A stretch of 64,000 bases of DNA from Alphaproteobacteria bacterium (GCA_030429625.1 JAUIFA010000003.1:278734-342733); one strand, 5' to 3'; positions 17,793-61,915 are shown, numbered from the stretch's first letter. The notes: a model not told the origin generated them from the sequence alone. Numbers and translations are program-made.

Positions 17793-19208
17793 ATGACTTC
17801 TCCCTTTGAACAAGAAAGTGATCATTTTTTTCAAAAACATGAGCGTATTTACCCGATGCGCGTATGGGGTAAATTCCGTATCCTAAAATGGGCTGCCATG
17901 ACCGGTCTTCTGGCAATTTATTACGTCACGCCTTGGATACGTTGGGATAGGGGAGAATATGCGCCGGATCAAGCCATTCTTATCTCCATCGCCCGTCAGC
18001 GTATGTATTTCTTTGATTTAGAAATCTGGCCTCAAGAAATTTATTTTGTCACCGGTATATTGGTATTATCGGCTCTTGGATTGTTTTATGTTACTTCACT
18101 TTTTGGTCGGGTGTGGTGTGGCTATGCCTGCCCACAAACCGTATGGACAGATCTCTTTGTCTGGGTAGAACGGATTGTTCAGGGGCGACGTAATGAACGT
18201 ATAAAGCTGGACAAAATGCCCCTGTGTTTTGAAAAAATATGGAAAAAAGGTCTAACGCATTTTATCTGGGTTTTAATAGGTATGGCAACAGGAGGGGCGT
18301 ACGTACTTTATTTTAACGATGCACCTACCGTAATACATCAGATCATACATTTTGAACTTCCCTTTGAAACCGGCGCGTGGATATTTGGCTTAACTGTTAG
18401 TACTTATGTACTGGCTGGACATGCACGGGATCAAGTCTGTTCTTTTATGTGTCCTTATGCGCGTTTCCAATCGGCAATGTTTGACAAAGACACGTTGATT
18501 ATCGGTTACGACGAAGAACGTGGAGAGCCCAGAGGCAAACATAAACAGGGCGAAAGCTGGGATGGGAGAGGCGACTGTATAGATTGTCATCGTTGTGTCC
18601 ATGTATGCCCACAGGGGATTGATATCCGCAACGGTCTGCAAATGCAGTGTATTGCCTGTGGGCTGTGCATTGATGCGTGCAATGAAATTATGGACAAAGT
18701 TGGACTCCCTCAAGGGCTTATTCGCTATGACAGTTACCACCATCTGCACAACAAGGAAGAAAAAGGCTTTCATCTTTTGCGCCCAAGAACAATTTACTAC
18801 ACCATCATTATGGCGGTAATATTTAGTGTATTTATCTACTTCTTACTGAATAAATCTCCGTTAGAAATGAATGTTATACGGGACAGAAACCCTATCTTTG
18901 TAAAACTTTCAGACGGCAGCATTCGCAACGCTTACACGATTAAAATTCTTAATAAAACCAGAGAAAAAAGAAATTATTCTCTTTCAATTATTGGTATTAA
19001 AGATGCAAAACTAAAATTGGAAGATGTTGATTTTGTTGACCTAAACAACATTAAAGTACAAAGTGATGGCGTGGCACAATATAGGTTGTATATCATTGCA
19101 CCGCCAACGTCCTTAAAAGGTAACCGAACAGACATTCGTTTGTCTCTGGTGGACAATGAAACACATTATCAAACCAACTATAAAGGGGTGTTTGTAAGTG
19201 GTAAATAG
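17793..19208 (+). CDS. ccoG: cbb3 oxidase accessory protein CcoG/FixG (polyferredoxin-like)
   Basis: 471 aa with TM segments. Cys motifs CGYACPQ, CIDCHRCVHVCP and CIACGLCIDAC. Confidence 0.9.
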   Translation: MTSPFEQESDHFFQKHERIYPMRVWGKFRILKWAAMTGLLAIYYVTPWIRWDRGEYAPDQAILISIARQRMYFFDLEIWPQEIYFVTGILVLSALGLFYVTSLFGRVWCGYACPQTVWTDLFVWVERIVQGRRNERIKLDKMPLCFEKIWKKGLTHFIWVLIGMATGGAYVLYFNDAPTVIHQIIHFELPFETGAWIFGLTVSTYVLAGHARDQVCSFMCPYARFQSAMFDKDTLIIGYDEERGEPRGKHKQGESWDGRGDCIDCHRCVHVCPQGIDIRNGLQMQCIACGLCIDACNEIMDKVGLPQGLIRYDSYHHLHNKEEKGFHLLRPRTIYYTIIMAVIFSVFIYFLLNKSPLEMNVIRDRNPIFVKLSDGSIRNAYTIKILNKTREKRNYSLSIIGIKDAKLKLEDVDFVDLNNIKVQSDGVAQYRLYIIAPPTSLKGNRTDIRLSLVDNETHYQTNYKGVFVSGK

Positions 19209-19701
19209 TGATGGAATTACTCTAGAAAAAGATAGCTTTAAGGATAAACTTATCCCTTGGTATTTCGTCTTATTCTTTTTGGTCGTGTTTATTGTGAATG
19301 GCTTCTTTGTCTATTTTGCCGTTTCCAGCTTTACCGGAGTCACCACCGAAGGTGCGTATACTAAAGGTGTTGCCTATAATGAAGTGGTGGCACAAAAGCG
19401 CAAGCAAGATGCCTTGGGATGGCAGGATAATTTTAGCCTAGAAAATGACGGTGATCATTATAAAATTTCTCTGTCTTTTAGTGATAAAAAAAGCGGAGAA
19501 CTTATCCCAATCGATAAGGTGACGGGTATTTTATTCCGTCCTTCAAACAGCGGGCATGATCTGAATCTTAATTTCACCAACAGTGAAGAGACGTATGTTG
19601 CCGAGTTTATTCCTCCACTAAAAGGCCAGTGGGAAGCACATATTGTTGCCTATAAGGGTGATAATCTGATAAAACATCGTTATGATGTGACCATTAAATA
19701 A
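19198..19701 (+). CDS. ccoH: cbb3 oxidase assembly protein CcoH/FixH
   Basis: 167 aa with a single N-terminal TM helix and a FixH-like periplasmic domain. GTG start overlapping the end of ccoG, in the canonical position. Confidence 0.8.
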   Translation: MVNSDGITLEKDSFKDKLIPWYFVLFFLVVFIVNGFFVYFAVSSFTGVTTEGAYTKGVAYNEVVAQKRKQDALGWQDNFSLENDGDHYKISLSFSDKKSGELIPIDKVTGILFRPSNSGHDLNLNFTNSEETYVAEFIPPLKGQWEAHIVAYKGDNLIKHRYDVTIK

Positions 19702-19723
19702 TTATTTATATATAAAGCTTCCT

Positions 19724-22042
19724 ATGTCAGATTTATGTCTACATTGTGGGCAGAAATGTCCTGATCATCAAGATTTTTGCTGTAACGGTTGCAGTGCTGC
19801 CTATGAGCTTATCAATACCGCCGGTCTTTCCTCTTATTACCAAAAACGTTTGGATGATATCAGCAACAATGTTTTAAAACCTGATGAAAATCCCAGAGAC
19901 ATTCATATTGGGGCGTTTGTTCAAACCGAAAATAACATCAATAGCCTGTATCTTATGGTCGAAGGAGTACATTGCGCGGCGTGTATTTGGCTGATAGAAA
20001 CCCTGCTTAACCGTCAGGAAGGGGTGATGAACGCGCGGGTGAATATGTCTACCAAACGGCTCACCTTGAAGTGGGAAGGGGACATAAAACGTGGCCAAGA
20101 ATTAGTTGCCATGATTGAGAGTATTGGTTACCGGCTTGTACCCTTTGATCCAAAAATTTTACGAAACGAGAATGAAGAATATCTCAAATTCCTTTTAGTC
20201 TGCTTAGGCATTGCCGGTTTTGCCGCCGGTAATATAATGCTTATCTCGATTTCTTTATGGTTTGACGGTTTTGGCATGGGCGAGGCTACCCGCAATATCT
20301 TACACTGGCTTTCTTCACTCATTGCCTTACCGGTGATTATATTCTCCGGAAGACCGTTTTTTTATTCGGCTTTTTCCGCTTTAAAAAACCGCCGTTCCAA
20401 TATGGATGTACCTATTTCACTGGCCATTATCTTAACGTCCATCATCAGCCTGATCCAGACAATGAATAAAGCCCATGATGTGTATTTTGATTCGGCTATT
20501 ATGCTGCTATTCTTTTTGCTCATCGGGCGTTATCTGGATACCAAAGCCCGCTATAAGGCAACCAACGCCTCACAGGATTTGCTATTACTCACTGCCGGTT
20601 CCGCCACCGTAATTAATGAGGATGGCAGCCAGAGTGTTATACCTAGCCAGAACATCACTCTCGGTATGAATTTGCTTGTCTGCGCGGGGGAAAAAATCCC
20701 TGCCGATGGGGTAATTCTAGAAGGCAATTCTGAAATTGATATGTCGCTGATCAATGGCGAAACCATTCCCCATATTGGTCAAAAAGGCAGTGATGTCTTC
20801 GCCGGAACGATTAATCTCAGCGCTCCCATAACCCTAAAAGTAACCAAAGTCGGGCAGGGGACTCTGCTCAACCAGATCGTCAGTATGATGGAAAACGCCG
20901 AAAAAGGGCAGGCCAAGTATGTGCGTATTGCCGACAGAATTGCCGGCTATTACACTCCCGTGGTGCATAGCCTTGCCGCGCTCACCTTTATCTACTGGCT
21001 TTTTGTTGGCGGGGAAGACTGGCAGCAATCCTTAATGACCGCGGTGACGGTTCTCATTATTACCTGCCCATGTGCCTTGGCCTTGGCCGTGCCGGTAGTG
21101 CAGGTTGTGGCTAGCCGCAGATTAATGCAGCAGGGTATCTTGTTAAAATCCGGCGAGGCTTTGGAAAAAATTCCCACCATCGATAGCATTATTTTTGATA
21201 AAACCGGAACACTGACTCTCGGTCATCCTGAACTCGTAAATAAGGCGGATATTTCGCTTGAAATCTTACAACTTGCCGCCTCCATCGCCAAAAAGAGCAA
21301 GCATCCGCTTTCGCGCGCTTTAGCAAAATCCTATCACGGGGAGCCGATAAAATTGGAAGTCACCGAAATTGCCGGTAAAGGCTTATTGGCCAAACATAAG
21401 GGCGAAGAAATACGGCTAGGAAACCGTGATTTTTGCAAGGTACAAGGTAAATCTCAGAGCTTGGAATTTTGGCTTAGTTATAAAAATCAGGACACTCATT
21501 TCATTTTTAAAGACCAGATTAGGCAAGACGCAAAGGAGATTATCTCAGATTTAAAGAGCAGGGCAATACACGTTATTCTGCTTTCGGGAGATGCAGAAGC
21601 ACCGGTAACTGAAGTCGCAGAATATCTGGATATAGACATCTTCGAACACAGCATGACGCCGGATAAGAAATACGCCTATATTGAAGCCATGCGCGATGTT
21701 GGTGGTAAAAAAATTATGATGGTGGGGGACGGGTTAAATGACGCTCCTTCGCTAGCACTGGCGGATGTATCGGTTTCTCCTTCTACTGCGATGGACATTA
21801 GCCAAAATGCCGCCGATATCATCTTCCAAGGAGAAAAACTCTACCCCATTAAAGAACTATTTAACCTGTCCACAAAAACTCAAAAATTAGTAAGACAAAA
21901 TTTTGCCATTGCCTTATGCTACAATCTATTAGCAATTCCTCTGGCGATGATGGGTTATGTGACGCCATTACTGGCCGCCCTTGCTATGAGCAGCAGCTCG
22001 ATTATCGTTATCACCAACGCATTGAGGTTAAGTAAAAAATGA
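19724..22042 (+). CDS. ccoI: Copper-translocating P1B-type ATPase CcoI/FixI
   Basis: 772 aa. N-terminal Cys-rich region, HMA-like VEGVHCAACIW, CPC transport motif, DKTGT phosphorylation site and the GDGLND hinge. Confidence 0.9.
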   Translation: MSDLCLHCGQKCPDHQDFCCNGCSAAYELINTAGLSSYYQKRLDDISNNVLKPDENPRDIHIGAFVQTENNINSLYLMVEGVHCAACIWLIETLLNRQEGVMNARVNMSTKRLTLKWEGDIKRGQELVAMIESIGYRLVPFDPKILRNENEEYLKFLLVCLGIAGFAAGNIMLISISLWFDGFGMGEATRNILHWLSSLIALPVIIFSGRPFFYSAFSALKNRRSNMDVPISLAIILTSIISLIQTMNKAHDVYFDSAIMLLFFLLIGRYLDTKARYKATNASQDLLLLTAGSATVINEDGSQSVIPSQNITLGMNLLVCAGEKIPADGVILEGNSEIDMSLINGETIPHIGQKGSDVFAGTINLSAPITLKVTKVGQGTLLNQIVSMMENAEKGQAKYVRIADRIAGYYTPVVHSLAALTFIYWLFVGGEDWQQSLMTAVTVLIITCPCALALAVPVVQVVASRRLMQQGILLKSGEALEKIPTIDSIIFDKTGTLTLGHPELVNKADISLEILQLAASIAKKSKHPLSRALAKSYHGEPIKLEVTEIAGKGLLAKHKGEEIRLGNRDFCKVQGKSQSLEFWLSYKNQDTHFIFKDQIRQDAKEIISDLKSRAIHVILLSGDAEAPVTEVAEYLDIDIFEHSMTPDKKYAYIEAMRDVGGKKIMMVGDGLNDAPSLALADVSVSPSTAMDISQNAADIIFQGEKLYPIKELFNLSTKTQKLVRQNFAIALCYNLLAIPLAMMGYVTPLLAALAMSSSSIIVITNALRLSKK

Positions 22043-22198: not shown

Positions 22199-22376
22199 AT
22201 CGTCATCCTGTGGAATTTCCTATAAATTAGCACAGGATCCATACATATGAGAAAGTGGATTCTGTGCTGTCGTTTTACTCCCCACAGAATGACGGGATGA
22301 GGTGTCATCTTCACACATAGTATGAAGATCCAGTAATTTCTGTTCTGGATTCCCAGCCTAACGACTGAGAATGACA
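22199..22376. repeat. Palindromic repeat cluster A (four GTCAT...GGATYC hairpin modules in alternating orientation)
   Basis: Modules at about 22201-22240, 22255-22295, 22302-22331 and 22345-22376. The first three match locus D (43934-44062) nearly base for base. The fourth is an inverted copy of 23448-23479 and 34281-34311. Confidence 0.85.
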
Positions 22377-23447: not shown

Positions 23448-23529
23448 TGTCATTCTCAGCCGATAGGCTGGGAATCCACTTTAATTAAGATGGATCCCCA
23501 TTTCGGCAATGGCCTCATGAGGATGACGC
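23448..23529. repeat. Palindromic repeat cluster B (two hairpin modules)
   Basis: TGTCATTCTCAGCCGATAGGCTGGGAATCCAC (23448-23479) plus an inverted GGATCC...ATGAC module (about 23492-23527). Same family as loci A, C and D. Confidence 0.8.
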
Positions 23530-23553: not shown

Positions 23554-25359
23554 ATGACCGAATCAGAAGTTAAACTCTGTGCTCAAGAACAGATGAAAAT
23601 CGACAGTAAGTATCTTAAAGGAGATATATTACAGGAGCTTAATGACGATAAGCCGGATATATCAGACTATTCCTATGAGTTGTTAAAGTTCCATGGTTCG
23701 TATTTTGCTTTTGATCGGGACAGCGCGACAGAGCGCAAAAAAGCGGGCTTGGAGAAGCGTTTTGAATTTATGATTCGTCTGCGTGTTCCTGCGGGATTGA
23801 TGACTGCCAAACAATATCTGGCGATGGACGATGTCTGTGAGAGATATTCTAACAAAACCCTGCGTATCACTACCCGTCAGGCGATTCAGTTTCATGTTAT
23901 TTTAAAAGAGAATTTTCAAGCCTGTATAGCGGATATCAATAAATCACTGCTCTCAACGCGTAGTGCCTGCGGTGATGTTACACGGAATATCACCACTAGC
24001 CCTGCGCCGTTTAAGAATGCTAAATTCACTAAATTACGGGAAGATGCTTTGGCCATCGCCGAATTTGTAAAACCCCATTCTTCAGCCTATGACGAGCTTT
24101 GGAACGGAAAAAAAGAATCTAATAGGGAAGGTGATAATGTTGAACCGCTTTATGGACAAACCTATCTCCCACGCAAATTTAAGATTGGTTTGGTTGTTCC
24201 GGAAGATAATAGCATTGATGTGTTTACTCACGATCTTGGTATTGTGCATCTTTATGACGGGGATGAGCTGATCGGCCACAATATCCTCGTTGGTGGGGGA
24301 ATGGGAATGAGCCATGAGGGTAAACTCAAATGGCATGAGAAAAAGACCTACCCACGTTTGGCAGATCCGTTGGCCTTTGTTGCACCCGATGACTTGATTA
24401 ATGCGGTGGAAGCAGTAATCAAATTACAGCGTGATTTTGGTGATCGTACCAATCGCAAACACGCGCGTCTGAAATATCTGGTCCAGGAAAAAGGATTGGA
24501 TTGGATTCGTAAAACCTTTGATGAGTATTTTGCCAAGACCAAGCCTTCTACCCCAGCGCAAGACCCACAGAAGATGGAAGAGTTTAAAATCCCATCCCAT
24601 ATGGGCTGGCATGAGCAGGGAGATGGCAAACTGTTCTTGGGTGTTCCTGTGCCTTCCGGACGAATTTGTGATTACGATGTGGAACACGAGGCCAAATACA
24701 ATACCGGCAAGAATAAACACCATGCCAATGCCCGCTATCGTACCGGTCTGCGGGAAGTGATTAAAGAATACGGCATGGATGTGGTATTAACACCAACGGA
24801 AGAAATCATCCTCTGTGATATTGATCCGGCAGACAAAGAAACCATTGCCAAAAAGCTGCAATCTTATGGTATTGTGTTGGCCGAAGACCACACACCTGCA
24901 CAACTGACCTTTATGGCTTGTGTGGCACTGCCCACTTGCGCAAAAGCGTTGGCGGAGAGCGAGCGGGTACAGTTTCATATTCTTGATGCTTTCCAAGCTG
25001 TGTTGGACAAATACGCAGTTGGCAGGGAAGAAATCTCCCTGCGCGTGACGGGTTGTCCGAACGGGTGTGCCCGCCCTTATGTAGGGGATATTGGTCTGGT
25101 TGGACGTATGCCTGGGCATTATACATTGTTTGTCGGTGGTGATTTTGCTGGAACGCGCCTTTCCACTCGCGTGTTTGATAAATTGCCACAGGATGATTTT
25201 TCCACCGCCATTGAACCGATGATCGCACGCTGGGCAAAAGAACGGCAGGACGGTGAAGGTTTTGGGGATTTTGCCCATCGAATTGGAGTAAAAAATTTAG
25301 CACAAACGGCGATAGATCAATTAAGTGAACAACATAAATGGGCGGAGTGGGCAGATTAA
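23554..25359 (+). CDS. cysI: Assimilatory sulfite reductase hemoprotein (siroheme/[4Fe-4S])
   Basis: 601 aa with nitrite/sulfite reductase repeats. Cluster and siroheme Cys motifs CVALPTC and TGCPNGCARP. Confidence 0.9.
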   Translation: MTESEVKLCAQEQMKIDSKYLKGDILQELNDDKPDISDYSYELLKFHGSYFAFDRDSATERKKAGLEKRFEFMIRLRVPAGLMTAKQYLAMDDVCERYSNKTLRITTRQAIQFHVILKENFQACIADINKSLLSTRSACGDVTRNITTSPAPFKNAKFTKLREDALAIAEFVKPHSSAYDELWNGKKESNREGDNVEPLYGQTYLPRKFKIGLVVPEDNSIDVFTHDLGIVHLYDGDELIGHNILVGGGMGMSHEGKLKWHEKKTYPRLADPLAFVAPDDLINAVEAVIKLQRDFGDRTNRKHARLKYLVQEKGLDWIRKTFDEYFAKTKPSTPAQDPQKMEEFKIPSHMGWHEQGDGKLFLGVPVPSGRICDYDVEHEAKYNTGKNKHHANARYRTGLREVIKEYGMDVVLTPTEEIILCDIDPADKETIAKKLQSYGIVLAEDHTPAQLTFMACVALPTCAKALAESERVQFHILDAFQAVLDKYAVGREEISLRVTGCPNGCARPYVGDIGLVGRMPGHYTLFVGGDFAGTRLSTRVFDKLPQDDFSTAIEPMIARWAKERQDGEGFGDFAHRIGVKNLAQTAIDQLSEQHKWAEWAD

Positions 25360-25360
25360 A

Positions 25361-25870
25361 ATGTTACCAATCACGTTAGACATTAAGGCATTAAAAGTTG
25401 TCGTTGTTGGTCAGGGAAGGGCCACAAGCAAACGTCTGGAAATGTTAAAAGAAGCCGGAGCAACGGACGTGACGCACTACACGACTCCACCCGTAGAGGA
25501 CGCGTATGACGGCGCACAGATTGTGTTTGTGGGGGATTTTGACGATCAGGAATCTGCTAAAATTGCTGAGACTGTAAGAAGTAAAAATATTCTTCTCAAT
25601 ATTGAAGACAAAAAGCCTTATTGTGACTTTCACATACCGGCCATGGTTAGAAGAGGGGATTTGCTCATTGCCGTGTCTACTTCAGGTGCAAGCCCGCGTT
25701 TGTCTGCAATTTTACGAGACTTCTTTGAAGAAGAATTTGGCCCCGAATGGGTCAATAACTTACAAGTCATCCGCATGGAGCGGGAAAAGTGGCTAAAAGA
25801 GGGGCTTAGTTACGACGAGCTGATTGCCCGCTCGGACGCGCTGTTTGAAGAATTAGGAATATTTGAATGA
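25361..25870 (+). CDS. Siroheme synthase N-terminal-domain protein (precorrin-2 dehydrogenase / sirohydrochlorin ferrochelatase, CysG-N/Met8-like)
   Basis: NAD-binding VVVVGQGRATSKRL and the ISTSGASPRLSA motif, both typical of the CysG N-domain. There is no methyltransferase domain. The ATG at 25361 lies 1 nt after the cysI stop. The track ORF begins at 25325, an alternative start. Confidence 0.8.
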   Translation: MLPITLDIKALKVVVVGQGRATSKRLEMLKEAGATDVTHYTTPPVEDAYDGAQIVFVGDFDDQESAKIAETVRSKNILLNIEDKKPYCDFHIPAMVRRGDLLIAVSTSGASPRLSAILRDFFEEEFGPEWVNNLQVIRMEREKWLKEGLSYDELIARSDALFEELGIFE

Positions 25871-26613
25871 ACTCTGAACGCTTAAATCGATTGCAGGCAT
25901 TTTACGGTGACTTTGGCGCCGAGACGTTACTGCGCGCCATGATTAAGGACGAGTTTCAGGGAAAAGTTGCGTTGGTTTCTTCTTTTGGTGCGGATTCTGC
26001 CTTGCTGATTAAGCTGGTGGCGGACGTAGATCCGAACACACCAATCCTGTTTCTGGATACGGGAAAACATTTTCAAGAAACATTAGATTATGTAGACCTG
26101 TTAGAAAAACAACTGAAACTAACCAATATTCGTCGTTTAAAACCACGAGAAGATTTGATCAACAACATCGACAAAGACGGTACGTTGTGGCAGCGCCAAG
26201 TCAATCGCTGCTGCTGGTTGCGCAAGGTAGAACCGCTGAACCGCGTCATTGAAAGCGGGGAGTTTGAAGCCCTGATTACTGGCCGAAAACGCTACCAAAC
26301 CTCTGATCGGCAAGATATCGACAATGTAGAGCTATTTGATGATGGATTATTTAGAATCAATCCTTTATGTATGTGGACCAAAAATGACATAAAGGAAAAA
26401 TTTAAAGAATTTAATTTGCCACAACACCCTCTGGTAGCAAAAGGTTACCCTTCTATTGGCTGTAAACCGTGCACCAATGAGGTCAAACCAGGGGAAGACG
26501 AACGCTCAGGAAGATGGGCACATACGTCCACCGAAGGCAAACAAAAAACTGAATGCGGGATCCACACCGGACTGGAAGAAAATGTTTCCGACTGGTTAGG
26601 CGGCGGACTCTAA
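25867..26613 (+). CDS. cysH: Adenylylsulfate (APS) reductase, thioredoxin-dependent, Fe-S type CysH
   Basis: 248 aa with the catalytic ECGIH motif. The Cys-Cys pair (NRCCWLRKVEPL) and CxxC (GCKPCT) are diagnostic of [4Fe-4S] APS reductases. ATGA overlap with the previous gene. Confidence 0.85.
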   Translation: MNSERLNRLQAFYGDFGAETLLRAMIKDEFQGKVALVSSFGADSALLIKLVADVDPNTPILFLDTGKHFQETLDYVDLLEKQLKLTNIRRLKPREDLINNIDKDGTLWQRQVNRCCWLRKVEPLNRVIESGEFEALITGRKRYQTSDRQDIDNVELFDDGLFRINPLCMWTKNDIKEKFKEFNLPQHPLVAKGYPSIGCKPCTNEVKPGEDERSGRWAHTSTEGKQKTECGIHTGLEENVSDWLGGGL

Positions 26614-26637: not shown

Positions 26638-27486
26638 ATGACCAACGACAATATGAACCACTTAGACAAGCTTGAAGCCCAGTCAATTTATATCTTTCGT
26701 GAGATGTTTAACAAAATTGATAACGTGGCGATGTTGTGGAGCTTTGGTAAAGATTCCAACGTGATGATCCATCTAGCGCGCAAGGCATTTTTTGGCAATA
26801 TCCCATTCCCGCTGATTCATTGCGATACGGAGCTGGAATTCCCTGAAGTATACGCCTTCCGTGATCAATATGTTAAAGAGTGGGGAGTTGATTTTGTAGG
26901 CCCAGTCTGCCCTCCTATTGAAGAAACAGATCAATCACTCCCATGGGCAGCGCGCGTTGCCGCCCGTAAGACTCTTGGTCTAAAAGAAGTGCTAAACAAA
27001 CACAAATTTAACGGTATTGTCACCGGCATCCGCCGTGATGAAGAGGGTACACGTGCCAAAGAACGTTATTTTAGCCCCCGCAATTTAGAAGGCCAATGGG
27101 ACGTAAAAGATCAGCCGCCAGAATTTTGGGATCAGTTTATGACCGACTTCCCTCCGGGAACGCATGTGCGTATCCATCCTTTATTGCATTGGACAGAATT
27201 GGACGTTTGGCTCTACATCAAACGTGAGGGGATTCCGATTGTGCCACTGTATTTTGCTCAGCCATACGGTGAATTCCATGGTAAAAATTTTGGCGGGAAA
27301 ATGATGCGCTTCCGTTCTTTGGGAGAAATTGGCATCACCTGGCCACTAGAATCAGAAGCCGACGACATTGACAAAATCATTGCCGAGCTTCGGGTTACTA
27401 AAACATCCGAACGTTCTGGTCGGCCAATGGGCAAGGACGAGGACGAAGCCGCATTCGAAAAATTACGTCAAGAAGGGTATATGTAA
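26638..27486 (+). CDS. cysD: Sulfate adenylyltransferase subunit 2
   Basis: 282 aa PAPS-reductase-fold ATP sulfurylase small subunit (LWSFGKDS..., GIRRDEE, C-terminal EGYM). Confidence 0.9.
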   Translation: MTNDNMNHLDKLEAQSIYIFREMFNKIDNVAMLWSFGKDSNVMIHLARKAFFGNIPFPLIHCDTELEFPEVYAFRDQYVKEWGVDFVGPVCPPIEETDQSLPWAARVAARKTLGLKEVLNKHKFNGIVTGIRRDEEGTRAKERYFSPRNLEGQWDVKDQPPEFWDQFMTDFPPGTHVRIHPLLHWTELDVWLYIKREGIPIVPLYFAQPYGEFHGKNFGGKMMRFRSLGEIGITWPLESEADDIDKIIAELRVTKTSERSGRPMGKDEDEAAFEKLRQEGYM

Positions 27487-27530: not shown

Positions 27531-28040
27531 ATGATTAAAAATTTTATTATCACATTACTAATCACCCTCATTGCAGTGCCGTCTTATGCGGATGAAGCCT
27601 CTCATAGAGCTGTAGCAGAGGAGTTATTTAAACTTGCAAAGGCTGAAGAGGCAATGAAACCACTTGAAACTGCCAGCACATCCATGATGGAGCAAAGTTT
27701 ACGTCAGGCATCGACTTGTTTTACCGATGAAATCATCGCTGACATTGTAGGAGAAGTAAAAGAGATTCTTGATATGGAAGGATTAATTGCCCTAACAAAG
27801 AAAAAATCCATTGAACTATACATACAAAATTTCACAGAAGAAGAAATAACAGAGATTGTTGCTTTCTATAAAAGTGAGGTTGGTCAGAAAATGGTAGATT
27901 CAATGCCAAAAATAATGCAGCAAACTCTTCCTCTTGGACAAAAATATGCGGCAGAAAAAATGCCAAAGATTCAAGAATTTATGCAAGGGGTTATTCCTAA
28001 ATATATCAACAAAGACAAGAGCTGTAAAAAACCGGAATAA
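27531..28040 (+). CDS. Secreted DUF2059-like protein
   Basis: 169 aa with a signal peptide (…AVPSYADE). The segment IVAFYKSEVGQKMVDSMPKIMQQ resembles the DUF2059 signature. Two Cys residues. The gene is inserted between cysD and cysNC. Confidence 0.65.
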   Translation: MIKNFIITLLITLIAVPSYADEASHRAVAEELFKLAKAEEAMKPLETASTSMMEQSLRQASTCFTDEIIADIVGEVKEILDMEGLIALTKKKSIELYIQNFTEEEITEIVAFYKSEVGQKMVDSMPKIMQQTLPLGQKYAAEKMPKIQEFMQGVIPKYINKDKSCKKPE

Positions 28041-28043
28041 TCC

Positions 28044-28646
28044 ATGATATATTTTTTTCTTATCCTTATTGGCCTGCTTTCATCTTTTTCTGCTTCAGCT
28101 CAAGAGATAGAAACCAACAACAAAGAGCGTTATGCTTATCGTGTTGCTAACGAGATTGTTGGTTTGATCATTGAGCAAGAAGGGGTTGAAGATTATGTTG
28201 CCTATGAGATTGATAGAATAAAGAAGAATGTCATTGTGAAGCTACGTTGTTTGAATGAAAAAGACAGGGAATATATTTTTAGTAATATTGAGTTGGGACA
28301 TTTGATCCGTCTGATGAATAAAAATGGTTTTGTGCCCTATCTAATGAAAAAATTTACTGAGAGTGAGTTGCAAGTACTCTACCAGATGGCCGAAGAAGAC
28401 ATGTTTAGCTATCTGGCAGACAAAAGTAAGTCCACCGCAGATATGAGCAAGACACAACTAACTCTTATGTTTGAATTTGCCACCTCAAACATTGCGGTAA
28501 AAATGCAGCATAGTAAAAAAGAGTTGGAAAATTTAATCAATGAAAAAGCAGAAACGATTGTTTTTGATGTGATGAAAGACGCAAGGGACAAAGCAAAGGA
28601 AGTTTTAAAAGCAAAAAATATATCGCTGCGTAATTGCAGCACTTAA
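28044..28646 (+). CDS. Hypothetical secreted protein (possible distant paralog of 27531..28040)
   Basis: 200 aa with a signal peptide (…SFSASAQE). Helical, Lys/Glu-rich, two Cys residues. It starts 3 nt after the preceding stop. Confidence 0.6.
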   Translation: MIYFFLILIGLLSSFSASAQEIETNNKERYAYRVANEIVGLIIEQEGVEDYVAYEIDRIKKNVIVKLRCLNEKDREYIFSNIELGHLIRLMNKNGFVPYLMKKFTESELQVLYQMAEEDMFSYLADKSKSTADMSKTQLTLMFEFATSNIAVKMQHSKKELENLINEKAETIVFDVMKDARDKAKEVLKAKNISLRNCST

Positions 28647-28673: not shown

Positions 28674-30611
28674 ATGAACAATACCGCATTAGCTATTAAT
28701 TCAGAAACCCAGCCTGAAAGGGAGCAGATGAAAATTGTCATCGTTGGTCATGTTGACCATGGTAAATCTACCTTAGTTGGCCGTTTATTCCATGATACGG
28801 ATAGTTTGCCTGACGGGAAATTGGAAGAAATCCAGAATCTGTGTAAAAAGCGCGGCATGCCCTTTGAATACAGCTTTTTGATGGACGCATTGCAGGCGGA
28901 AAGAGATCAGGGCATTACCATTGACACAACGCAAATCTGGTTTAAAACCGAGACACGGGACTATGTAATTATCGATGCCCCTGGCCATAAAGAATTCCTA
29001 AAGAACATGATTTCTGGTGCGGCCAATTCTGAAGCTGCCGTGCTGGTGATCGATGCCAATGAAGGGGTGCAGGAACAATCCAAGCGTCATGGATATTTAT
29101 TGCATTTACTCGGTGTTAGCCAAATCGCTGTGGCCGTAAATAAGATGGACATGGTTGGCTATTCGGAAGAAAAATTTAAACAGATCGAGAAAGAATACCG
29201 TCAATATCTTAATGACATTGGCGTAGAGCCAACCTACATTATCCCTATTTCCGCCCGTGAGGGGGATTGTATTGTTCATGGCAATAGCGATAATATGTCG
29301 TGGTATCAAGGTCCTTCTGTAATGGGTGCATTGGACGAATTTAAACTCAAGCCTAAAGATGCAGAGCTTCCTCTACGCTTTCCAGTTCAGGATGTCTACA
29401 AGTTTGATGAACGCCGTATTGTCGCTGGACGCATCGAAAGCGGCAGCCTGAAAGTAGGGGACGAGCTTATGTTCTCACCTATTAATAAAATTGTAAAAGT
29501 CAATTCCATCGAAAATTTTGCAGGGCCAGAACTCACTGAAGTATCTGCCGGCATGTCAGTAGGCATTACTCTTAGCGAACAGATTTTTGCTGAACGCGGC
29601 AATGTTATCAGTCATGTGACAAAAATGCCGATGTTAAGCAATGTATTTAGAGCAAAAATTTTCTGGTTGGGGGATCGTCCCATTGAAATTGGCAATCGCT
29701 ATACCATGAAAATAAATACTTCTGAATATCGAGTGGAAGTTAAGGAAATTGAAAGTGTTGTGGACACAGATGATCTTGCGATTGCGGACAAACATGAAAA
29801 GGTTGAAAAGAACGCCGTTGCCGAAATAATTCTACGCGTACGTGGTGTGGCGGTGTTGGATGAATTCCAGAATAATTCTATTACTGGTCGCTTTGTTCTG
29901 GTAGACAATTACCGCATTTGCGGTGGTGGTATCATTGACCTGAACGGGTTTGACGACCAACGACCATCCAGCAGTGTAAAATCGAGTAATATTACTGCTG
30001 TTGCTGCCAAAGTTAGCCCAGAAGCGCGGGCGTTGAATAATGGCCATATGGGAGGCGTATTGTGGTTCTCTGGCCTTTCTGGTTCAGGAAAATCTACTTT
30101 AGCGATGGAGCTAGAACGCCGTCTTTTTGCAAAAGGCTATCAGGTGTACGTGCTAGATGGGGACAATGTCAGAAGTGGACTGAATCGTGATCTTGGCTTT
30201 TCACCAGAAGATCGCTCTGAAAATATCCGTCGTATCGGTGAGGTGGCAGCATTGTTTGCCAGTTCAGGAACGATTGTCATTACTGCCTTTATCTCACCTT
30301 ATAAAAAGGACAGAGACACAGCACGCGTAGCTGCAGGGAATAAATACCACTCCATTTACATTAAGGCCGATGTCGAAACTTGTGAATCACGTGACCCTAA
30401 GGGGCTTTATCAAAAAGCCCGCAGCGGAGAAATTAAAGAATTTACAGGTATCTCTGCGCCTTTTGAAGAGCCGGATAATGCTGACTTAATCGTTGATACA
30501 AAGAATAAAAACATAGACGAGTCGGTGGAGAAGCTGATTGAATATGTTGAAAAATATTTTGTTCAACCGGTAAAAACAATTAAACATCATAATCTTGGCA
30601 GCGGGATATAA
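28674..30611 (+). CDS. cysN: Bifunctional sulfate adenylyltransferase subunit 1 / APS kinase (CysN-CysC fusion)
   Basis: 645 aa. N-terminal EF-Tu-like GTPase ([18 protein letters not shown]) and C-terminal APS kinase with P-loop GLSGSGKST. Confidence 0.9.
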
Positions 30612-30620
30612 GAGAAAATT

Positions 30621-33600
30621 ATGACAGAGTTACATCTTTCTTTTGGTTTAACATTTGCAGAGCTTTATTCTAGGTCAGGCTTAGAAAAGCTTGATACAGC
30701 TTTTATTAATCACTTAAAAGAGAGCAATGTCGATTTGCATAATCGCTTTTTAGAAATGCGTGCAAAGATTGTTTCAAAACAAGAGGTAGAAGGAAAAGAT
30801 GAATCCAATCTATTGATTGAACTTTCTCCCTATCTAGAAGATTTCCTTGCCCAACTCTTTAATATTCAGGACGAAGTAAGAGCGACTCAAAAACAGCATA
30901 ATGAGTTGGCAGATTTGTATCTGTGTAAGCGGATTTTTGTGCAGCGGCGTGCAGTAAAGATGGTCAAAGAGGCTGAGGCTGATAGTATAGATGGAGAGAA
31001 GCTAGCCAAACAGTTAGAAGAAATTTTCGGGGAACCTTTAACCGAGAAATCTTTTGCCAAGCATGTGGTACAGTGGATTGATGGCACAAAAGGCACAGAC
31101 ATTGAAGGCTGTGAAGAAAAAAATGCCCTTGCCGGACAATATGCCGGTTGGGCGTTGATGAGCCACGCAGGTCAAAAGAAACACAAATGTGGGGTTTTGT
31201 TCAAGCGTCCTAACAAGATAGATTTTGATAATCTTGTGCCGGTGGATACTGAAATTGTTGATGGCATCAATATTATGTCATTAGCTTCTTCTCATCATCT
31301 GCGTCAACGTGAAGGTTTTCATCTCACTGATGATGGCTTTACGTTAGAACAGGTCTTGGATAATGCCAATTATTGTATTTTCTGCCACAATCAGGGCAAA
31401 GATTCCTGCTCCAAAGGATTGCGTGAGAAACCAGACCCAGAAACCGGCAAAGCACCTTACAAAACCAGCCCAACACGGGTAAAACAAGCCGGTTGCCCGC
31501 TGGAAGAAAAAATTTCTGAAATGAACAGTGTTAAAGCGCAGGGCTTTACTGTTGGTGCATTGGCAATTATTGCCGTAGACAATCCGCTTTGTGCCGCTAC
31601 AGGACACCGTATTTGTAACGACTGCATGAAGGGGTGTATCTACCAAAAGCAAGATCCTGTTAACATTCCCGCGGTGGAAACCCGTGTGTTAACCGATACG
31701 TTGGCTCTGCCTTGGGGTTTTGAAATTTATAGCCTGCTGACCCGATGGAACCCTTTAAATCTACAGCGTCCTATTATGAAGACTGAAAGTGGTTATAAGG
31801 TTCTGGTTGTTGGTTTGGGGCCTGCGGGATATTCTCTGGCACATCATTTGATGAATGACGGACATACCGTAGTGGGCATTGACGGGCTAAAAATTGAACC
31901 ATTGCCGGCAGAAATTTCCGGCGTAAGCCCCACAGGAGAGAGAACAGAATTTCGCCCAATCAAGAACGTAGAACAAGAAATATATGAAGATTTAAACGAT
32001 AGGGTATTGGCAGGTTTTGGCGGTGTGGCAGAATATGGTATTACCGTACGCTGGAACAAAAACTTCCTCAAAATCATCCGTCTAATCTTAGAGCGAAGGG
32101 AACAATTTGCCATGCGTGGCGGAGTGCGCTTTGGTAGCACCTTGACCTACGATCAGACATTTGAGTTGGGTTTTGACCATGTGGCACTTTGTTTGGGCGC
32201 GGGGAAACCAACCATTGTTTCTATGCCCAATGCTGTGGCCAGAGGCGTACGTACCGCTTCGGACTTCCTCATGGGATTGCAGCTCAGCGGTGCGGCTAAG
32301 GAACATTCTATTGCCAACATGCAAGTTAGGTTGCCTGTCGTTGTCATCGGTGGCGGATTAACGGGTATTGATACCGCTACTGAAGCATTGGCTTATTATC
32401 CTGTGCAGGTGGAAAAATTTCTAAAGCGCTATAAAATTCTTATTGAAGAGCGTGGAGAAGAAAAAGTTCGTGCTGCCTGGAATGAGGAAGAAACCATCAT
32501 TGCTGATGAATTTATTGCTCATGCCATGGCTATTCGTGAGGAACGTAAAAAGGCCAAACAAGAGAACAGAGAAGCTGACATTATCTCTCTGCTGCAAAGT
32601 TGGGGTGGAGCAACGTTAGCATATCGCCGTACGATTCAAGAAGCTCCAAGCTATCGCCTAAACCATGAAGAGATAGAAAAAGCCATGGAAGAGGGCATTA
32701 CTTTTACCCAAAATGTGACTCCTGTTAGAGTCAGCGTTGATGAATATGGGCATGTTTCGGGTTTGCGTGTTAGCTATCCATTTGAAGAAGCCGATGGGCG
32801 TATTGATATTCGTGAAAAAACCTTACCGGCTAAATCAATTTATATGGCCGCAGGTACCAGTCCAAATACCGTGCTTCATCGTGAAGATAAAAAACATTTT
32901 GAGTTGGATCATGATGGGTGGTTCTTTAAAGCCATTGACGAGCAAGGAAATGTAGTCACACCAGAGAAAAATATTTCTAAACCTGATATGGTTCAGGTGT
33001 TGATGTCTAAGAATGAGCAGGGAAAATTTGTTAGCTTTTTTGGAGATCTGCACCCTACATTTGTTGGGAATGTTGTCAAAGCATTAGGCTCGACAAAACA
33101 GGGATATCCCATTGTTACTAATGCATTAAAACAGAAAAAACCCGCTAGTGACCTAGACTCTGTAAGCTTTATTAAGCAAATAAATAAGAAGCTTATTGCT
33201 ACGGTTTATAAAGTAGAGCGTTTGACACCTACGATTATTGAAGTTGTTGTACATGCACCTTTGGCCGCAGAAAACTTTAAACCCGGACAATTTTATCGTT
33301 TACAGAATTTTGAAAGTTTAGCTCCTAAAGCACCGGACGGCACAATCCTTTCCATGGAAGGTCTGGCCTTAACCGGTGCATGGCAAGACAAGGAAAAAGG
33401 GTTGATCTCTGTCATTATTCTTGAAATGGGCGGTTCTTCAGATCTGTGTGCTTATTTAAAAGAAGGCGAGCCAGTAGTGTTGATGGGCCCAACGGGTGAA
33501 CCTACCGAGATTACCAAGGGCGAAACCGTGATGCTTATTGGCGGAGGTTTGGGTAATGCGGTGCTGTTTTCTATCGGAAAGGCCTTTAAAGACGCGGGTA

Positions 33601-34181
33601 GCAAAGTGCTTTATTTTGCGGGGTATAAAGAGTTACAAGATCGTTATAAGGTGGAAGAAATTGAAAAAGCCTCTGATGTAATTGTTTGGTGCTGTGATAA
33701 TGGTGAGTTTCCTGTTGAGCGTCCACAAGATAAGAGTTTTAAAGGCAATATTGTACAAGCAATCAAAGCCTATGCTACGGGTGAATTGGGTGAAGTAGAG
33801 ATAGCAACCCAAGAATGTGACCGCATCGTTGTTATTGGATCAGACAGAATGATGGCCGCAGTTAAATCTTCTAGATTCAATGAATTAAAGAATTATCTTA
33901 AAGTAGAACATAAAGCTATTGGGTCGATCAACTCACCCATGCAATGCATGATGAAAGAGATATGCGCTCAATGCCTCCAACGTCATATTGATCCGGAAAC
34001 TGGCGAACGTTACTACGTTTACAGCTGCCATAACCAAGATCAAGAGCTTGATTATGTTGATTTTCAACATCTTAGTGAGCGCTTAAAACAGAATAATGTT
34101 CAGGAAAAACTGACCAAACAGTGGATCGACCGCTCACTCAAAGCCCTTGATCTGCGTGAAGACACAGATAAAGCCGCTTAA
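30621..34181 (+). CDS. Large multidomain Fe-S flavoprotein oxidoreductase: N-terminal extension + GltD/NfnB-like module + PyrK/NfnA-like module
   Basis: 1186 aa. Fer4_20-like Cys clusters (CIFCHNQGKDSC...CPLEEKI; NPLCAATGHRICNDCMKGC...PVNIPAVE). Two Rossmann motifs (VVGLGPAGY; VVIGGGLTGID). A C-terminal FNR-like barrel (GQFYRL), NAD motif LIGGGLGNA, and a terminal 2Fe-2S-type pattern CMMKEICAQC...SC. The gene starts 9 nt after cysNC. Confidence 0.75.
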   Translation: MTELHLSFGLTFAELYSRSGLEKLDTAFINHLKESNVDLHNRFLEMRAKIVSKQEVEGKDESNLLIELSPYLEDFLAQLFNIQDEVRATQKQHNELADLYLCKRIFVQRRAVKMVKEAEADSIDGEKLAKQLEEIFGEPLTEKSFAKHVVQWIDGTKGTDIEGCEEKNALAGQYAGWALMSHAGQKKHKCGVLFKRPNKIDFDNLVPVDTEIVDGINIMSLASSHHLRQREGFHLTDDGFTLEQVLDNANYCIFCHNQGKDSCSKGLREKPDPETGKAPYKTSPTRVKQAGCPLEEKISEMNSVKAQGFTVGALAIIAVDNPLCAATGHRICNDCMKGCIYQKQDPVNIPAVETRVLTDTLALPWGFEIYSLLTRWNPLNLQRPIMKTESGYKVLVVGLGPAGYSLAHHLMNDGHTVVGIDGLKIEPLPAEISGVSPTGERTEFRPIKNVEQEIYEDLNDRVLAGFGGVAEYGITVRWNKNFLKIIRLILERREQFAMRGGVRFGSTLTYDQTFELGFDHVALCLGAGKPTIVSMPNAVARGVRTASDFLMGLQLSGAAKEHSIANMQVRLPVVVIGGGLTGIDTATEALAYYPVQVEKFLKRYKILIEERGEEKVRAAWNEEETIIADEFIAHAMAIREERKKAKQENREADIISLLQSWGGATLAYRRTIQEAPSYRLNHEEIEKAMEEGITFTQNVTPVRVSVDEYGHVSGLRVSYPFEEADGRIDIREKTLPAKSIYMAAGTSPNTVLHREDKKHFELDHDGWFFKAIDEQGNVVTPEKNISKPDMVQVLMSKNEQGKFVSFFGDLHPTFVGNVVKALGSTKQGYPIVTNALKQKKPASDLDSVSFIKQINKKLIATVYKVERLTPTIIEVVVHAPLAAENFKPGQFYRLQNFESLAPKAPDGTILSMEGLALTGAWQDKEKGLISVIILEMGGSSDLCAYLKEGEPVVLMGPTGEPTEITKGETVMLIGGGLGNAVLFSIGKAFKDAGSKVLYFAGYKELQDRYKVEEIEKASDVIVWCCDNGEFPVERPQDKSFKGNIVQAIKAYATGELGEVEIATQECDRIVVIGSDRMMAAVKSSRFNELKNYLKVEHKAIGSINSPMQCMMKEICAQCLQRHIDPETGERYYVYSCHNQDQELDYVDFQHLSERLKQNNVQEKLTKQWIDRSLKALDLREDTDKAA

Positions 34182-34190
34182 ATCTTCTCC

Positions 34191-34458
34191 TGTCATTCTG
34201 CGGGGAGTGGAACGACATCATTGTTACGGATCACCCTATAATTTACAGGCGTAAATTCAGGTGATGACGGCAATTGCTGTTGTCATTCTCAGCCGAAGGC
34301 TGGAAATCCAGAGGGAATGTATTGGATCTCCACCTACGGTGAAGATGACACATAACCGCCCTACCGGCGAAAGCCGGTATCCAGTTATTATGACGCCATG
34401 GTCAAGCCACGGTATGACACCAGGCCTGTCATTCTACGAAACTCCACGATATGACGAC
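34191..34458. repeat. Palindromic repeat cluster C (at least six GTCAT/ATGAC-bounded hairpin modules)
   Basis: It contains TGTCATTCTCAGCCGAAGGCTGGAAATCCAG (34281-34311), an inverted copy of the ATCTTCAC/GTGAAGAT module (34324-34351), a nested hairpin at 34229-34270, and others. It fills the whole gap between convergent genes. Confidence 0.85.
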
Positions 34459-38059: not shown

Positions 38060-38158
38060 TCTCGGCTGGCAGCGGGTAGCTGCTCTGTGAACCTGGTCAG
38101 GACCGAGAGGTAGCAGCCATAGCAGATGTTTGCTAGGTCGTTGTCAGTCATCTTTTTT
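38060..38158 (+). ncRNA. ffs: Signal recognition particle RNA (4.5S, small bacterial type)
   Basis: The conserved domain IV core is present: CUGUGAACCUGGUCAGGACC-GAGA-GGUAGCAGCCAUAGCAGAUG with a GNRA tetraloop. The terminal helix pairs 38064-38074 with 38139-38149, with G-U pairs. A T-run follows at 38152-38158. Confidence 0.85.
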
Positions 38159-61579: not shown

Positions 61580-61915
61580 CTAGCAGCCGTTTCCTGGCTC
61601 TTCACTGAAATAATCTTCGCGTTTGTTACTCACTCCCTTAAACTTCTCAGCTTCAGGGTCTTCACCAATATTGACCGTCAAATTAGGCCAAAGCGCGGCA
61701 TATTTACGGTTTAACTCTATCCATTCTTCGGTGGTTTCGTCCTCAGGAACAATAGCTTCCGCAGGGCACTCAGGCTCACACACACCACAATCTATGCACT
61801 CATCTGGGTTAATAACCAACATGTTTTTACCTTCATAAAAACAATCAACAGGGCAAACCTCAACACAATCTGTGTATTTACATTTTATGCATTGTTCCGT
61901 AACAATATAAGCCAT
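61580..61915 (-). CDS. fdxA: 7Fe ferredoxin ([3Fe-4S][4Fe-4S], FdxA type)
   Basis: 111 aa from [29 protein letters not shown]...[12 protein letters not shown] at 61915. The track ORF extends to 61975. Confidence 0.9.

Follow-up and report, generated by a model that had tools for sequence, protein, structure and literature searches.

A fused NfnB-NfnA-like oxidoreductase at the end of an alphaproteobacterial cys operon is a probable source of electrons for sulfite reductase

To our knowledge, the supply of the six electrons that assimilatory sulfite reductases consume is settled only for CysJ-type systems and for the ferredoxin-type systems of plants and cyanobacteria; many proteobacteria carry cysI with no obvious donor. 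In the solved structures of NfnAB (SudAB), an NAD(P)H-oxidising flavoprotein, one flavin takes NADPH and the other NAD(H), a [2Fe-2S] cluster lies between them, and two [4Fe-4S] clusters lead toward the acceptor. The subject here is a gene that joins both Nfn-type modules in a single chain. It occupies positions 30621..34181 (+ strand) of a 64,000-nucleotide stretch of an alphaproteobacterial assembly (GCA_030429625.1 JAUIFA010000003.1:278734-342733), called the window throughout, and is an open reading frame (ORF) of 1186 amino acids (aa) with an ATG start, the last gene of an operon for sulfate assimilation (cys). A sequence-only reading of the window proposed that its product replaces CysJ and passes NAD(P)H electrons to sulfite reductase, or possibly to adenosine 5'-phosphosulfate (APS) reductase. 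Comparative evidence indicates that the fusion protein probably does feed sulfite reductase by some route; that it is a general NAD(P)H electron-supply module, which reaches the Sir-like CysI via a soluble ferredoxin, has in our judgment an even chance of being correct. The fusion architecture and the family are already known, widespread and uncharacterised, and neither is new; the new part is the comparative evidence for an electron-supply role in sulfate-assimilation operons.

How closely does the fusion protein resemble the Nfn enzymes? Profile hidden Markov models, PDB matches and Foldseek confirm all of a four-part arrangement that had been read from the sequence: an N-terminal extension, a double [4Fe-4S] domain, a two-Rossmann module, and a PyrK/NfnA-like barrel of the ferredoxin-NADP reductase (FNR) type with a terminal cysteine pattern, in B-A order. 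An N-terminal helical domain (aa 1-~235; 30621..31325) is followed by a GltD/NfnB-type Fe-S domain (aa ~245-375; 31353..31745), an NfnB/GltD-like module with FAD and NAD(P)H Rossmann folds (aa ~385-845; 31773..33155), and an NfnA/PyrK-like FNR module (aa ~858-1140; 33192..34040) that carries a terminal Cys4 [2Fe-2S] motif, all on the + strand. Pyr_redox_2 matches residues 392-622 at 50 bits, and Fer4_20 matches residues 289-356 at 25.6 bits, just under its cut-off of 25.8. When searched against the PDB (phmmer), the middle part finds NfnB, Xfn and GltD chains (5vj7_A, 4.4e-14; 5jca_L, 1.3e-13; also 4ylf_B and 7mfm_I), and the C-terminal third finds NfnA and PyrK chains (4ylf_A, 8.7e-14; 5jca_S, 1.5e-12; also 1ep3_B). 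An AlphaFold2 model built with 30 homologues (predicted local distance difference test, pLDDT, 83; predicted template-modelling score, pTM, 0.86) gives the same picture: Foldseek places the large module with the NfnI large subunit 5jca_L (template-modelling score, TM, by target 0.72) and T. maritima NfnB 4ylf_B (0.75), Xfn being also top-ranked, and the small module with the NfnI small subunit 5jca_S (0.82).

The conserved residues fit a complete, predicted Nfn-like cofactor chain. In an alignment of close homologues, seven Cys of the Fe-S domain (C252, C255, C263, C292, C332, C335 and C339) are invariant, which leaves room for two [4Fe-4S] clusters, and this region aligns with the GCP and RVC..C..C motifs of GltD and NfnB. 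The same alignment shows three invariant dinucleotide motifs (GxGPAG at 398-403, GGGLT at 577-581, GGGLG at 974-978) and an invariant C-terminal 2Fe-2S site, C1109-x5-C1115-x2-C1118-x17-C1136. All eleven Cys columns, seven from the Fe-S domain and four from the C-terminus, are also invariant in a second, distant alignment, whose members are 29-42% identical to its first sequence.

Compared with NfnAB/NfnI (SudAB; T. maritima 4ylf, P. furiosus 5jca) and Xfn (5vj7), the fusion protein thus has both modules in the same folds (TM by target 0.72-0.75 for the NfnB-like part and 0.76-0.82 for the NfnA-like part) and keeps the predicted cofactor sites: two Rossmann folds, the double [4Fe-4S] domain, the FNR barrel and the [2Fe-2S] site. 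Unlike NfnAB, which is a heterodimer of two subunits, it is a single chain in B-A order with about 20% identity, carries the additional RP005_N domain (~235 aa), and has helices inserted into its NADPH domain (around aa 579-660 in the AlphaFold2 secondary structure). The 2Fe-2S ligands in NfnA are one Asp and three Cys, whereas PyrK uses four Cys; the four invariant Cys of the fusion protein suggest PyrK-type ligation, as judged from the motif at this site. The two modules stay fused in homologues down to 35% identity, and the hosts are for the most part aerobic proteobacteria and acidobacteria rather than anaerobes. The protein can be described as a fused Nfn/Sud variant that bears an additional N-domain and occurs in aerobes.

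The statement that the N-terminal extension of about 230 aa has no assigned function also holds. Residues 1-~235 match none of the local Pfam or NCBIfam domain models. The label RP005_N (PF27156) comes from precomputed Pfam annotation, taken as given here, in which the domain is present on the fusion protein and on all 119 listed homologues, and from the Atlas, in which the nearest clusters to the N-domain carry this name (score 0.92); the name presumably derives from a Rickettsia prowazekii locus tag. The N-domain is modelled with good confidence (pLDDT 89) as all-helical plus one β hairpin. A fold search over 48,161 chains gave a best Z of 5.1 (TRPM2; 84 aligned residues, root-mean-square deviation 8.3), which is the noise level for helical models.

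ORF coordinates agree with the earlier description of the fusion gene as last in the operon, 9 nt after cysNC: the cysNC stop codon TAA lies at 30609-30611, nine bases (gagaaaatt) lead to the ATG, and a purine-rich AAGAG upstream of the fusion gene overlaps the cysNC stop. The layout suggests that the fusion gene is co-transcribed with cysI-cysG'-cysH-cysD-cysNC, and it is probably translationally coupled to cysNC; a simple scan of the + strand, whose counts were no higher than those of shuffled controls, found no terminator-like site in the cysNC/fusion-gene interval. The proposed client, cysI (23554..25359, +; NF010029, 644.6 bits), encodes a siroheme sulfite reductase of the Sir-like clade: it scores higher with the model for ferredoxin-dependent sir (TIGR02042, 524.8 bits) than with that for CysI (TIGR02041, 480.7). 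In the CysJ-adjacent CysI proteins of two relatives (G016 and G020), this order is reversed, with 700-790 bits for the CysI model against 455-510 for sir.

Which donors are available to this CysI? The window had been described as encoding no CysJ-type flavoprotein, and the same is true of the whole genome (1.84 Mb, 12 contigs, 99.73% complete): genome-wide profile searches found no canonical cysJ (TIGR01931), PF00175 NAD_binding_1, PF00258 flavodoxin or DUF934. Plant-type FNRs, Fpr among them, are accordingly missing as well. The fusion protein shares with CysJ the proposed role, delivering NAD(P)H electrons to CysI, and both are encoded in cys operons, but it lacks the flavodoxin/FMN domain and the CysJ-type FNR domain (no Pfam match to Flavodoxin_1, FAD_binding_1 or NAD_binding_1), and its partner scores like a ferredoxin-dependent Sir, unlike the CysJ-coupled CysI. 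Two ferredoxins are encoded in the genome. A 7Fe-type ferredoxin, fdxA (61580..61915, -), was found by a CxxCxxCxxxCP scan and passes its model (NF045490, 155 bits; cut-off 135); it is a candidate carrier from the fusion protein to CysI. An adrenodoxin-type 2Fe-2S Fdx ends an operon whose gene lengths fit iscS-iscU-iscA-hscB-hscA, an assignment made from ORF sizes only. There is also a ferredoxin-NADP reductase of the thioredoxin reductase (TrxR) type, which has 5ygq as its best PDB match (3.7e-103) and no CxxC motif.

Gene neighbourhoods across the family point to the same client. When all flanking ORFs were clustered for close homologues at 80 loci, no cluster reached more than 10 loci except sulfite reductase (15), cysH/cysD (13) and cysN(C) (12); these recurrent cys neighbours lie nearly all upstream and on the same strand, and the remaining neighbours are lineage-specific. 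Sampling again with distant members as seeds brought in few further cys-linked loci, and together cys genes were found within 10 kb in 23 of 129 unique full-length loci. On the protein tree the label changes five times, compared with 21 times when labels are shuffled. It is complete in the small-genome alphaproteobacterial metagenome-assembled genomes (MAGs) of the window's clade (10/10) and in Nitrosomonadaceae (8/8), and recurs in L002/L003/L036 and in L113 and L068, the last two coming from one Caulobacteraceae MAG and one Bryobacteraceae MAG. The partner reductases are of two kinds, Sir-like in the window's clade (where CysI scores at least as well with the sir model as with the CysI model) and NirA-family in the other clades.

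Two loci bear on which enzyme of the pathway is served. In L002 and L003, a NirA-type reductase stands immediately upstream of the fusion gene, with no cysH and no other cys gene nearby; this layout argues that sulfite reductase, rather than APS reductase, is the client, and makes the APS reductase alternative of the sequence-only reading less likely. The NirA-family reductases beside the fusion gene (L002:7712-9880, L036:4186-6450, L044:4303-6414) are 700-754 aa long, and their C-terminal ~180-215 aa have no Pfam match. DUF934 was considered as an alternative donor and rejected: none of the order's 41 genomes has it, and in Nitrosomonas-type clusters, where it lies beside a NirA-type reductase, the fusion gene is also present, so the two are not alternatives.

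The distribution among the 41 genomes of the order bears on what the fusion protein replaces. It is present in 20, sulfite reductase in 29, and CysJ or a CysJ-like protein beside cysI in 10; fusion protein and sulfite reductase occur together in 11, with a window-like operon layout in four of those on long enough contigs (G026, G030, G031 and G034). In G023, a relative whose cys operon is otherwise identical, cysNC is followed at once by a gene for an Fpr-type ferredoxin-NADP reductase of 273 aa (L083:13105-13926), in the slot of the fusion gene. Orthologues of the TrxR-type FNR were found in every one of the 41 genomes; 17 have a second copy, 48-52% identical. In the 7 of these 17 that were sampled, the second copies group apart as FNR2 (support 100%) and share a distinct C-terminal motif, RFQYTTS. 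The same 17 genomes encode Fdx2, a 107-aa adrenodoxin-type [2Fe-2S] ferredoxin (at least 54% identical), and in at least five of them FNR2 and then Fdx2 are adjacent (for instance L173:4003-5370, L175:3964-5329 and L176:4021-5396, from relatives G001, G025 and G029). The FNR2-Fdx2 module is missing from all 20 carriers of the fusion protein and present in 17 of the 21 genomes without it; of the other four, G003 and G023 have Fpr-type enzymes, and G019 and G033 (290 contigs) have none of these. Every genome with a Sir-like sulfite reductase and no CysJ has the fusion protein, FNR2-Fdx2 or Fpr, except one 91%-complete, 290-contig assembly. In five genomes lacking both the fusion protein and CysJ (G001, G006, G009, G010 and G012), no hidden donor was found beside cysI; its neighbours there are unrelated, e.g., nadE, gltX, an EAL protein, a Na/H exchanger, uvrD, virB and mfd.

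The perfect exclusivity, together with the slot swap in G023, looks like non-orthologous displacement: the fusion protein seems to stand in for a ferredoxin reductase, or perhaps for the reductase together with its ferredoxin. By this comparative evidence it would be functionally interchangeable with FNR and ferredoxin couples (Fpr; TrxR-type enzymes such as 5ygq; adrenodoxin reductase/adrenodoxin), from which it differs in fold family and equipment; these have one flavin, whereas the fusion protein has four to five predicted cofactors, two nicotinamide sites and its own Fe-S clusters. As for the suggested comparison of the fusion with cysJ or DUF934 next to cysI, no sampled locus has the fusion gene beside a CysJ-coupled CysI, and within the order the complementarity is to FNR2-Fdx2, not to CysJ alone or to DUF934.

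How might the electrons flow? We propose that the fusion enzyme is a self-contained NAD(P)H oxidiser of the NfnAB/SudAB type with two flavin/nicotinamide sites. By analogy with NfnAB, NADPH would bind at the NfnB-like FAD and NAD(H) at the NfnA-like FAD, the nucleotide specificity of each site being carried over from the same comparison. The [2Fe-2S] cluster would sit between both flavins, and the two [4Fe-4S] clusters would lead outward to an exit near the N-terminal Fe-S domain. Low-potential electrons might then pass to FdxA, or to the Fdx of the isc operon, and from either to the Sir-like CysI. In this way the fusion enzyme would do the work done elsewhere by CysJ, Fpr or FNR2-Fdx2, and the family would also serve other ferredoxin-dependent clients without being dedicated to sulfite reduction. 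A ferredoxin route is favoured because (i) Fpr, which needs ferredoxin, can fill the same operon slot, and (ii) genomes that have no sulfite reductase show the same architecture, including the N-domain. If correct, operon linkage, the Fpr slot swap and FNR-ferredoxin complementarity together give a concrete role to a family that is still named by its domain labels and that is large, highly conserved, and present in Rickettsiales pathogens and symbionts.

A bolder extension of the proposed mechanism, which we regard as speculative and on balance doubtful, is that the fusion protein is a single-chain, oxygen-tolerant bifurcating enzyme of aerobes. By analogy with Nfn, NADPH would give one electron to NAD+ and the other, uphill, to the [4Fe-4S] pair, yielding low-potential electrons. 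Were this true, sulfite reductase and other ferredoxin-dependent enzymes would have a very low-potential source in bacteria that possess neither flavodoxin nor Fpr, Rickettsia, Ehrlichia and Wolbachia among them; a separate FNR-ferredoxin pair would become dispensable; and Nfn-type chemistry would extend from anaerobes to aerobes.

Several observations weigh against a ferredoxin-mediated supply of sulfite reductase by the fusion protein. Linkage to cys genes is absent from 106 of the 129 loci, and in G011, which belongs to the same family as the window's genome, the fusion gene lies ~450 kb from the cys genes. Nine of the 20 carriers have no sulfite reductase at all, which means that the fusion protein is not dedicated to sulfite reduction. 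Sulfate assimilation is presumably absent from Ehrlichia. The family nevertheless occurs there (PMC4251998), and also in Wolbachia and in Rickettsia symbionts; together with the nine carriers, these Rickettsiales imply that its core role is something else. Furthermore, the TrxR-type FNR conserved in all 41 relatives could, with FdxA, feed CysI without the fusion protein. The genomes compared are related, and perhaps no more than some four to six evolutionary events lie behind the exclusivity (FNR2-Fdx2 is found in 4 of 24 family codes, one of which, f1, holds both states in different genera). Finally, the displaced module includes Fdx2, so direct donation to the reductase fits equally well.

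Direct donation is the strongest of the rival explanations, although we consider it unlikely. As a direct analogue of CysJ, the fusion protein would dock on CysI, perhaps via the RP005_N and Fe-S domains, and its distal [4Fe-4S] cluster would hand electrons over to the siroheme-[4Fe-4S] centre with no ferredoxin in between. The operon position and tight spacing to cysNC, the absence of cysJ, and the L002/L003 arrangement, in which sulfite reductase and fusion gene are immediate neighbours, are all as expected of such a partner, and a protein that in relatives substitutes for FNR2 and Fdx2, reductase and ferredoxin alike, must carry its own Fe-S carrier function. However, genomes without sulfite reductase keep the N-domain and the architecture just as well, so there is no docking part specific to that enzyme, and the reductases found next to the gene come from two different families. 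Plain Fpr has no Fe-S cluster and acts through ferredoxin, and it is what the G023 slot holds. A complex prediction of CysI with residues 1-385 of the fusion protein scored 0.00 (mark 0.32), which is evidence neither for nor against docking. 'Replacement for CysJ' is therefore too narrow a description: cysJ is indeed absent, but nine of 20 carriers have no sulfite reductase to serve, the complementarity is with FNR2-Fdx2, the TrxR-type FNR and two ferredoxins could serve CysI, and direct docking on CysI is without support. The broader claim, that electrons go to sulfite reductase, fares better, being supported by cys linkage in about five clades, by two reductase types, and by the Fpr slot swap.

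Could the linkage to cys genes instead be incidental? The fusion protein would then be a housekeeping reductase that works through ferredoxin or directly, with clients that might include Fe-S assembly, radical-SAM enzymes, IspG/IspH, haem A synthase and quinone hydroxylases; it would contribute little to sulfite reduction, and CysI would be served by the TrxR-type FNR and FdxA. This we hold to be improbable. It accommodates the nine relatives without sulfite reductase and the obligate intracellular Rickettsiales (PMC4251998), the TrxR-type FNR and two ferredoxins of the genome, and the 106 loci with no cys genes nearby. A possible client is even visible in five alphaproteobacterial loci (L003:6403-7482, L036:2979-4034, L049, L061 and L062), where COX15/CtaA, haem A synthase, lies divergently upstream and adjoins the fusion gene or the pair of sulfite reductase and fusion gene; eukaryotic Cox15 depends on ferredoxin, and by analogy CtaA is a candidate second client. 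Yet cys genes are the sole neighbour class to recur across clades, on the upstream side and the same strand; linkage is complete in two clades; an Fpr takes the same slot in G023; and the 18% of loci that are linked compare with ~1% expected by chance (a rough estimate for a ~6-kb operon falling within 10 kb in a 2-4-Mb genome).

A third idea, which we consider very improbable, is that the protein is purely an NADH/NADPH transhydrogenase or NAD(P)H balancer that hands no electrons to an outside Fe-S acceptor, kept near cys genes because sulfate reduction uses NADPH. The two predicted nicotinamide sites, as in NfnAB, would suit it, as would pntA, which follows closely behind the fusion gene in five loci, Nitrosomonas-type and Burkholderiales (L019:11203-12369 and four others). 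But a transhydrogenase would not need the seven Cys of an outward-facing double [4Fe-4S] domain, which are invariant in homologues at 29-42% identity, and the complementarity is with an FNR-ferredoxin pair, not with Pnt. A subunit of glutamate synthase (GOGAT), suggested by a middle part homologous to GltD, a C-terminal part homologous to PyrK, and pyrD upstream in four betaproteobacterial loci, is scarcely credible and was rejected: the scores are far under the equivalog cut-offs (TIGR01317, 56 bits against 448; PyrK NF000799, 45.8 against 314), the chain has no catalytic GltB, DPD or PyrD domain (Pfam), the operon has no pyrD, and gltB is separately paired elsewhere with a GltD-like gene of its own. 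That gltB (L171:1314-8276, equal to G000 C5:355813-362775) has a 1666-aa product, and the GltD-like gene beside it encodes 650 aa, unusually long for the small subunit, scoring 108 bits with the GltD model (cut-off 448). The betaproteobacterial pyrD, accompanied by aat and ate (L018:8785-9858 and three other loci), and the pntA neighbourhood are probably lineage-specific synteny.

Where does the fusion protein stand among named families? Its closest profile is NCBIfam NF005128 (PRK06567), a Rickettsiales set that includes Ehrlichia ECH_0778 and has the same full-length architecture. The match of the fusion protein spans profile positions 2-932 of 1031 and also the C-terminal end; its 850.8 bits (782.9 + 61.2 bits in the genome search) fall short of the curated cut-off of 1072; on this measure it is a relative of, and not an equivalog to, the Rickettsiales set. 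E. chaffeensis ECH_0778 bears the same database name as the fusion family (PMC4251998), a name built from COG-style domain labels and not from a function. All GltD, PyrK and NfnA-like equivalog models stay far below their cut-offs. The fused GltD-PyrK families NF009414/PRK12778 (A-B order) and NF009415/PRK12779 (B-A order) likewise hold both modules in one chain, and the PyrK-like part of the fusion protein matches positions 5-197 of the former and 652-938 of the latter; the scores are weak (146 bits where the cut-off is 1103, and 96 where it is 1519), and neither match reaches the RP005_N region.

The family itself is large. A word-indexed homologue search gave at least 8000 matches, of which the best 120 are 60-71% identical and of equal length, and among 50%-identity representatives, searched exhaustively, 1085 proteins reached E<=1e-30; the best 150 of these are mostly ~1000-1250 aa and match nearly end to end, down to 35% identity. 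By their record titles, members belong to Alpha-, Beta- and Gammaproteobacteria, Acidobacteriota, Myxococcota and Binatia, and also to Wolbachia, a Rickettsia endosymbiont, Pelagibacter and Legionellales. None was found above cut-off in 14 model control genomes, which is probably why our literature search turned up mentions limited to genome tables and no functional study of the family.

The other genes of the operon are all on the + strand, with short or overlapping junctions. Behind cysI follow a sirC-like gene for a precorrin-2 dehydrogenase/ferrochelatase, corresponding to the N-terminal domain of CysG (25325..25870; NAD_binding_7 and Sirohm_synth_M; TIGR01470, 59.3 bits), cysH, for an APS/phosphoadenosine phosphosulfate (PAPS) reductase (25867..26613; NF002537, 248 bits), and cysD (26638..27486; NF003587, 345 bits). 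Two further genes stand between cysD and cysNC: a DUF2059 gene (27531-28040; 65.6 bits) and orf200, of 200 codons (28044-28646), which is matched by no family; neither was found by tblastn in 80 related loci. Then come cysNC, which encodes the large subunit of sulfate adenylyltransferase joined to APS kinase (28674..30611; NF004035, 616 bits; APS_kinase, 217 bits), and the fusion gene.

The operon is bracketed by copies of a 31-nt element, TGTCATTCTCAGCCGAnAGGCTGGnAATCCA, with a CAGCC/GGCTG hairpin. One copy (23448-23478, +) lies 76 nt upstream of the cysI start, another (22346-22376, -) beyond the divergent orf229, and a degenerate copy, one base shorter, 3' of the fusion gene at about 34282-34311 (+). 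The genome holds three to four copies, one of them at G000 C6 near 170650, and 100 shuffles of the window gave none; the element could be a regulator site or a small repeat resembling repetitive extragenic palindromic (REP) sequences. Elsewhere in the window, 38061-38155 (+) is a bacterial small signal recognition particle (SRP) RNA, at 58 bits the sole Rfam match at gathering threshold. At 17793-22042 (+), a 471-aa protein with a CxxCxxCxxxCP motif is followed by a copper-type P1B ATPase; by this motif and the gene order, the pair looks like ccoG/fixG-fixI. The segment from cysNC through the fusion gene (28674-34181) matched no listed RNA run and was found in four DNA metagenome runs from two studies, two of the runs being possibly its source.

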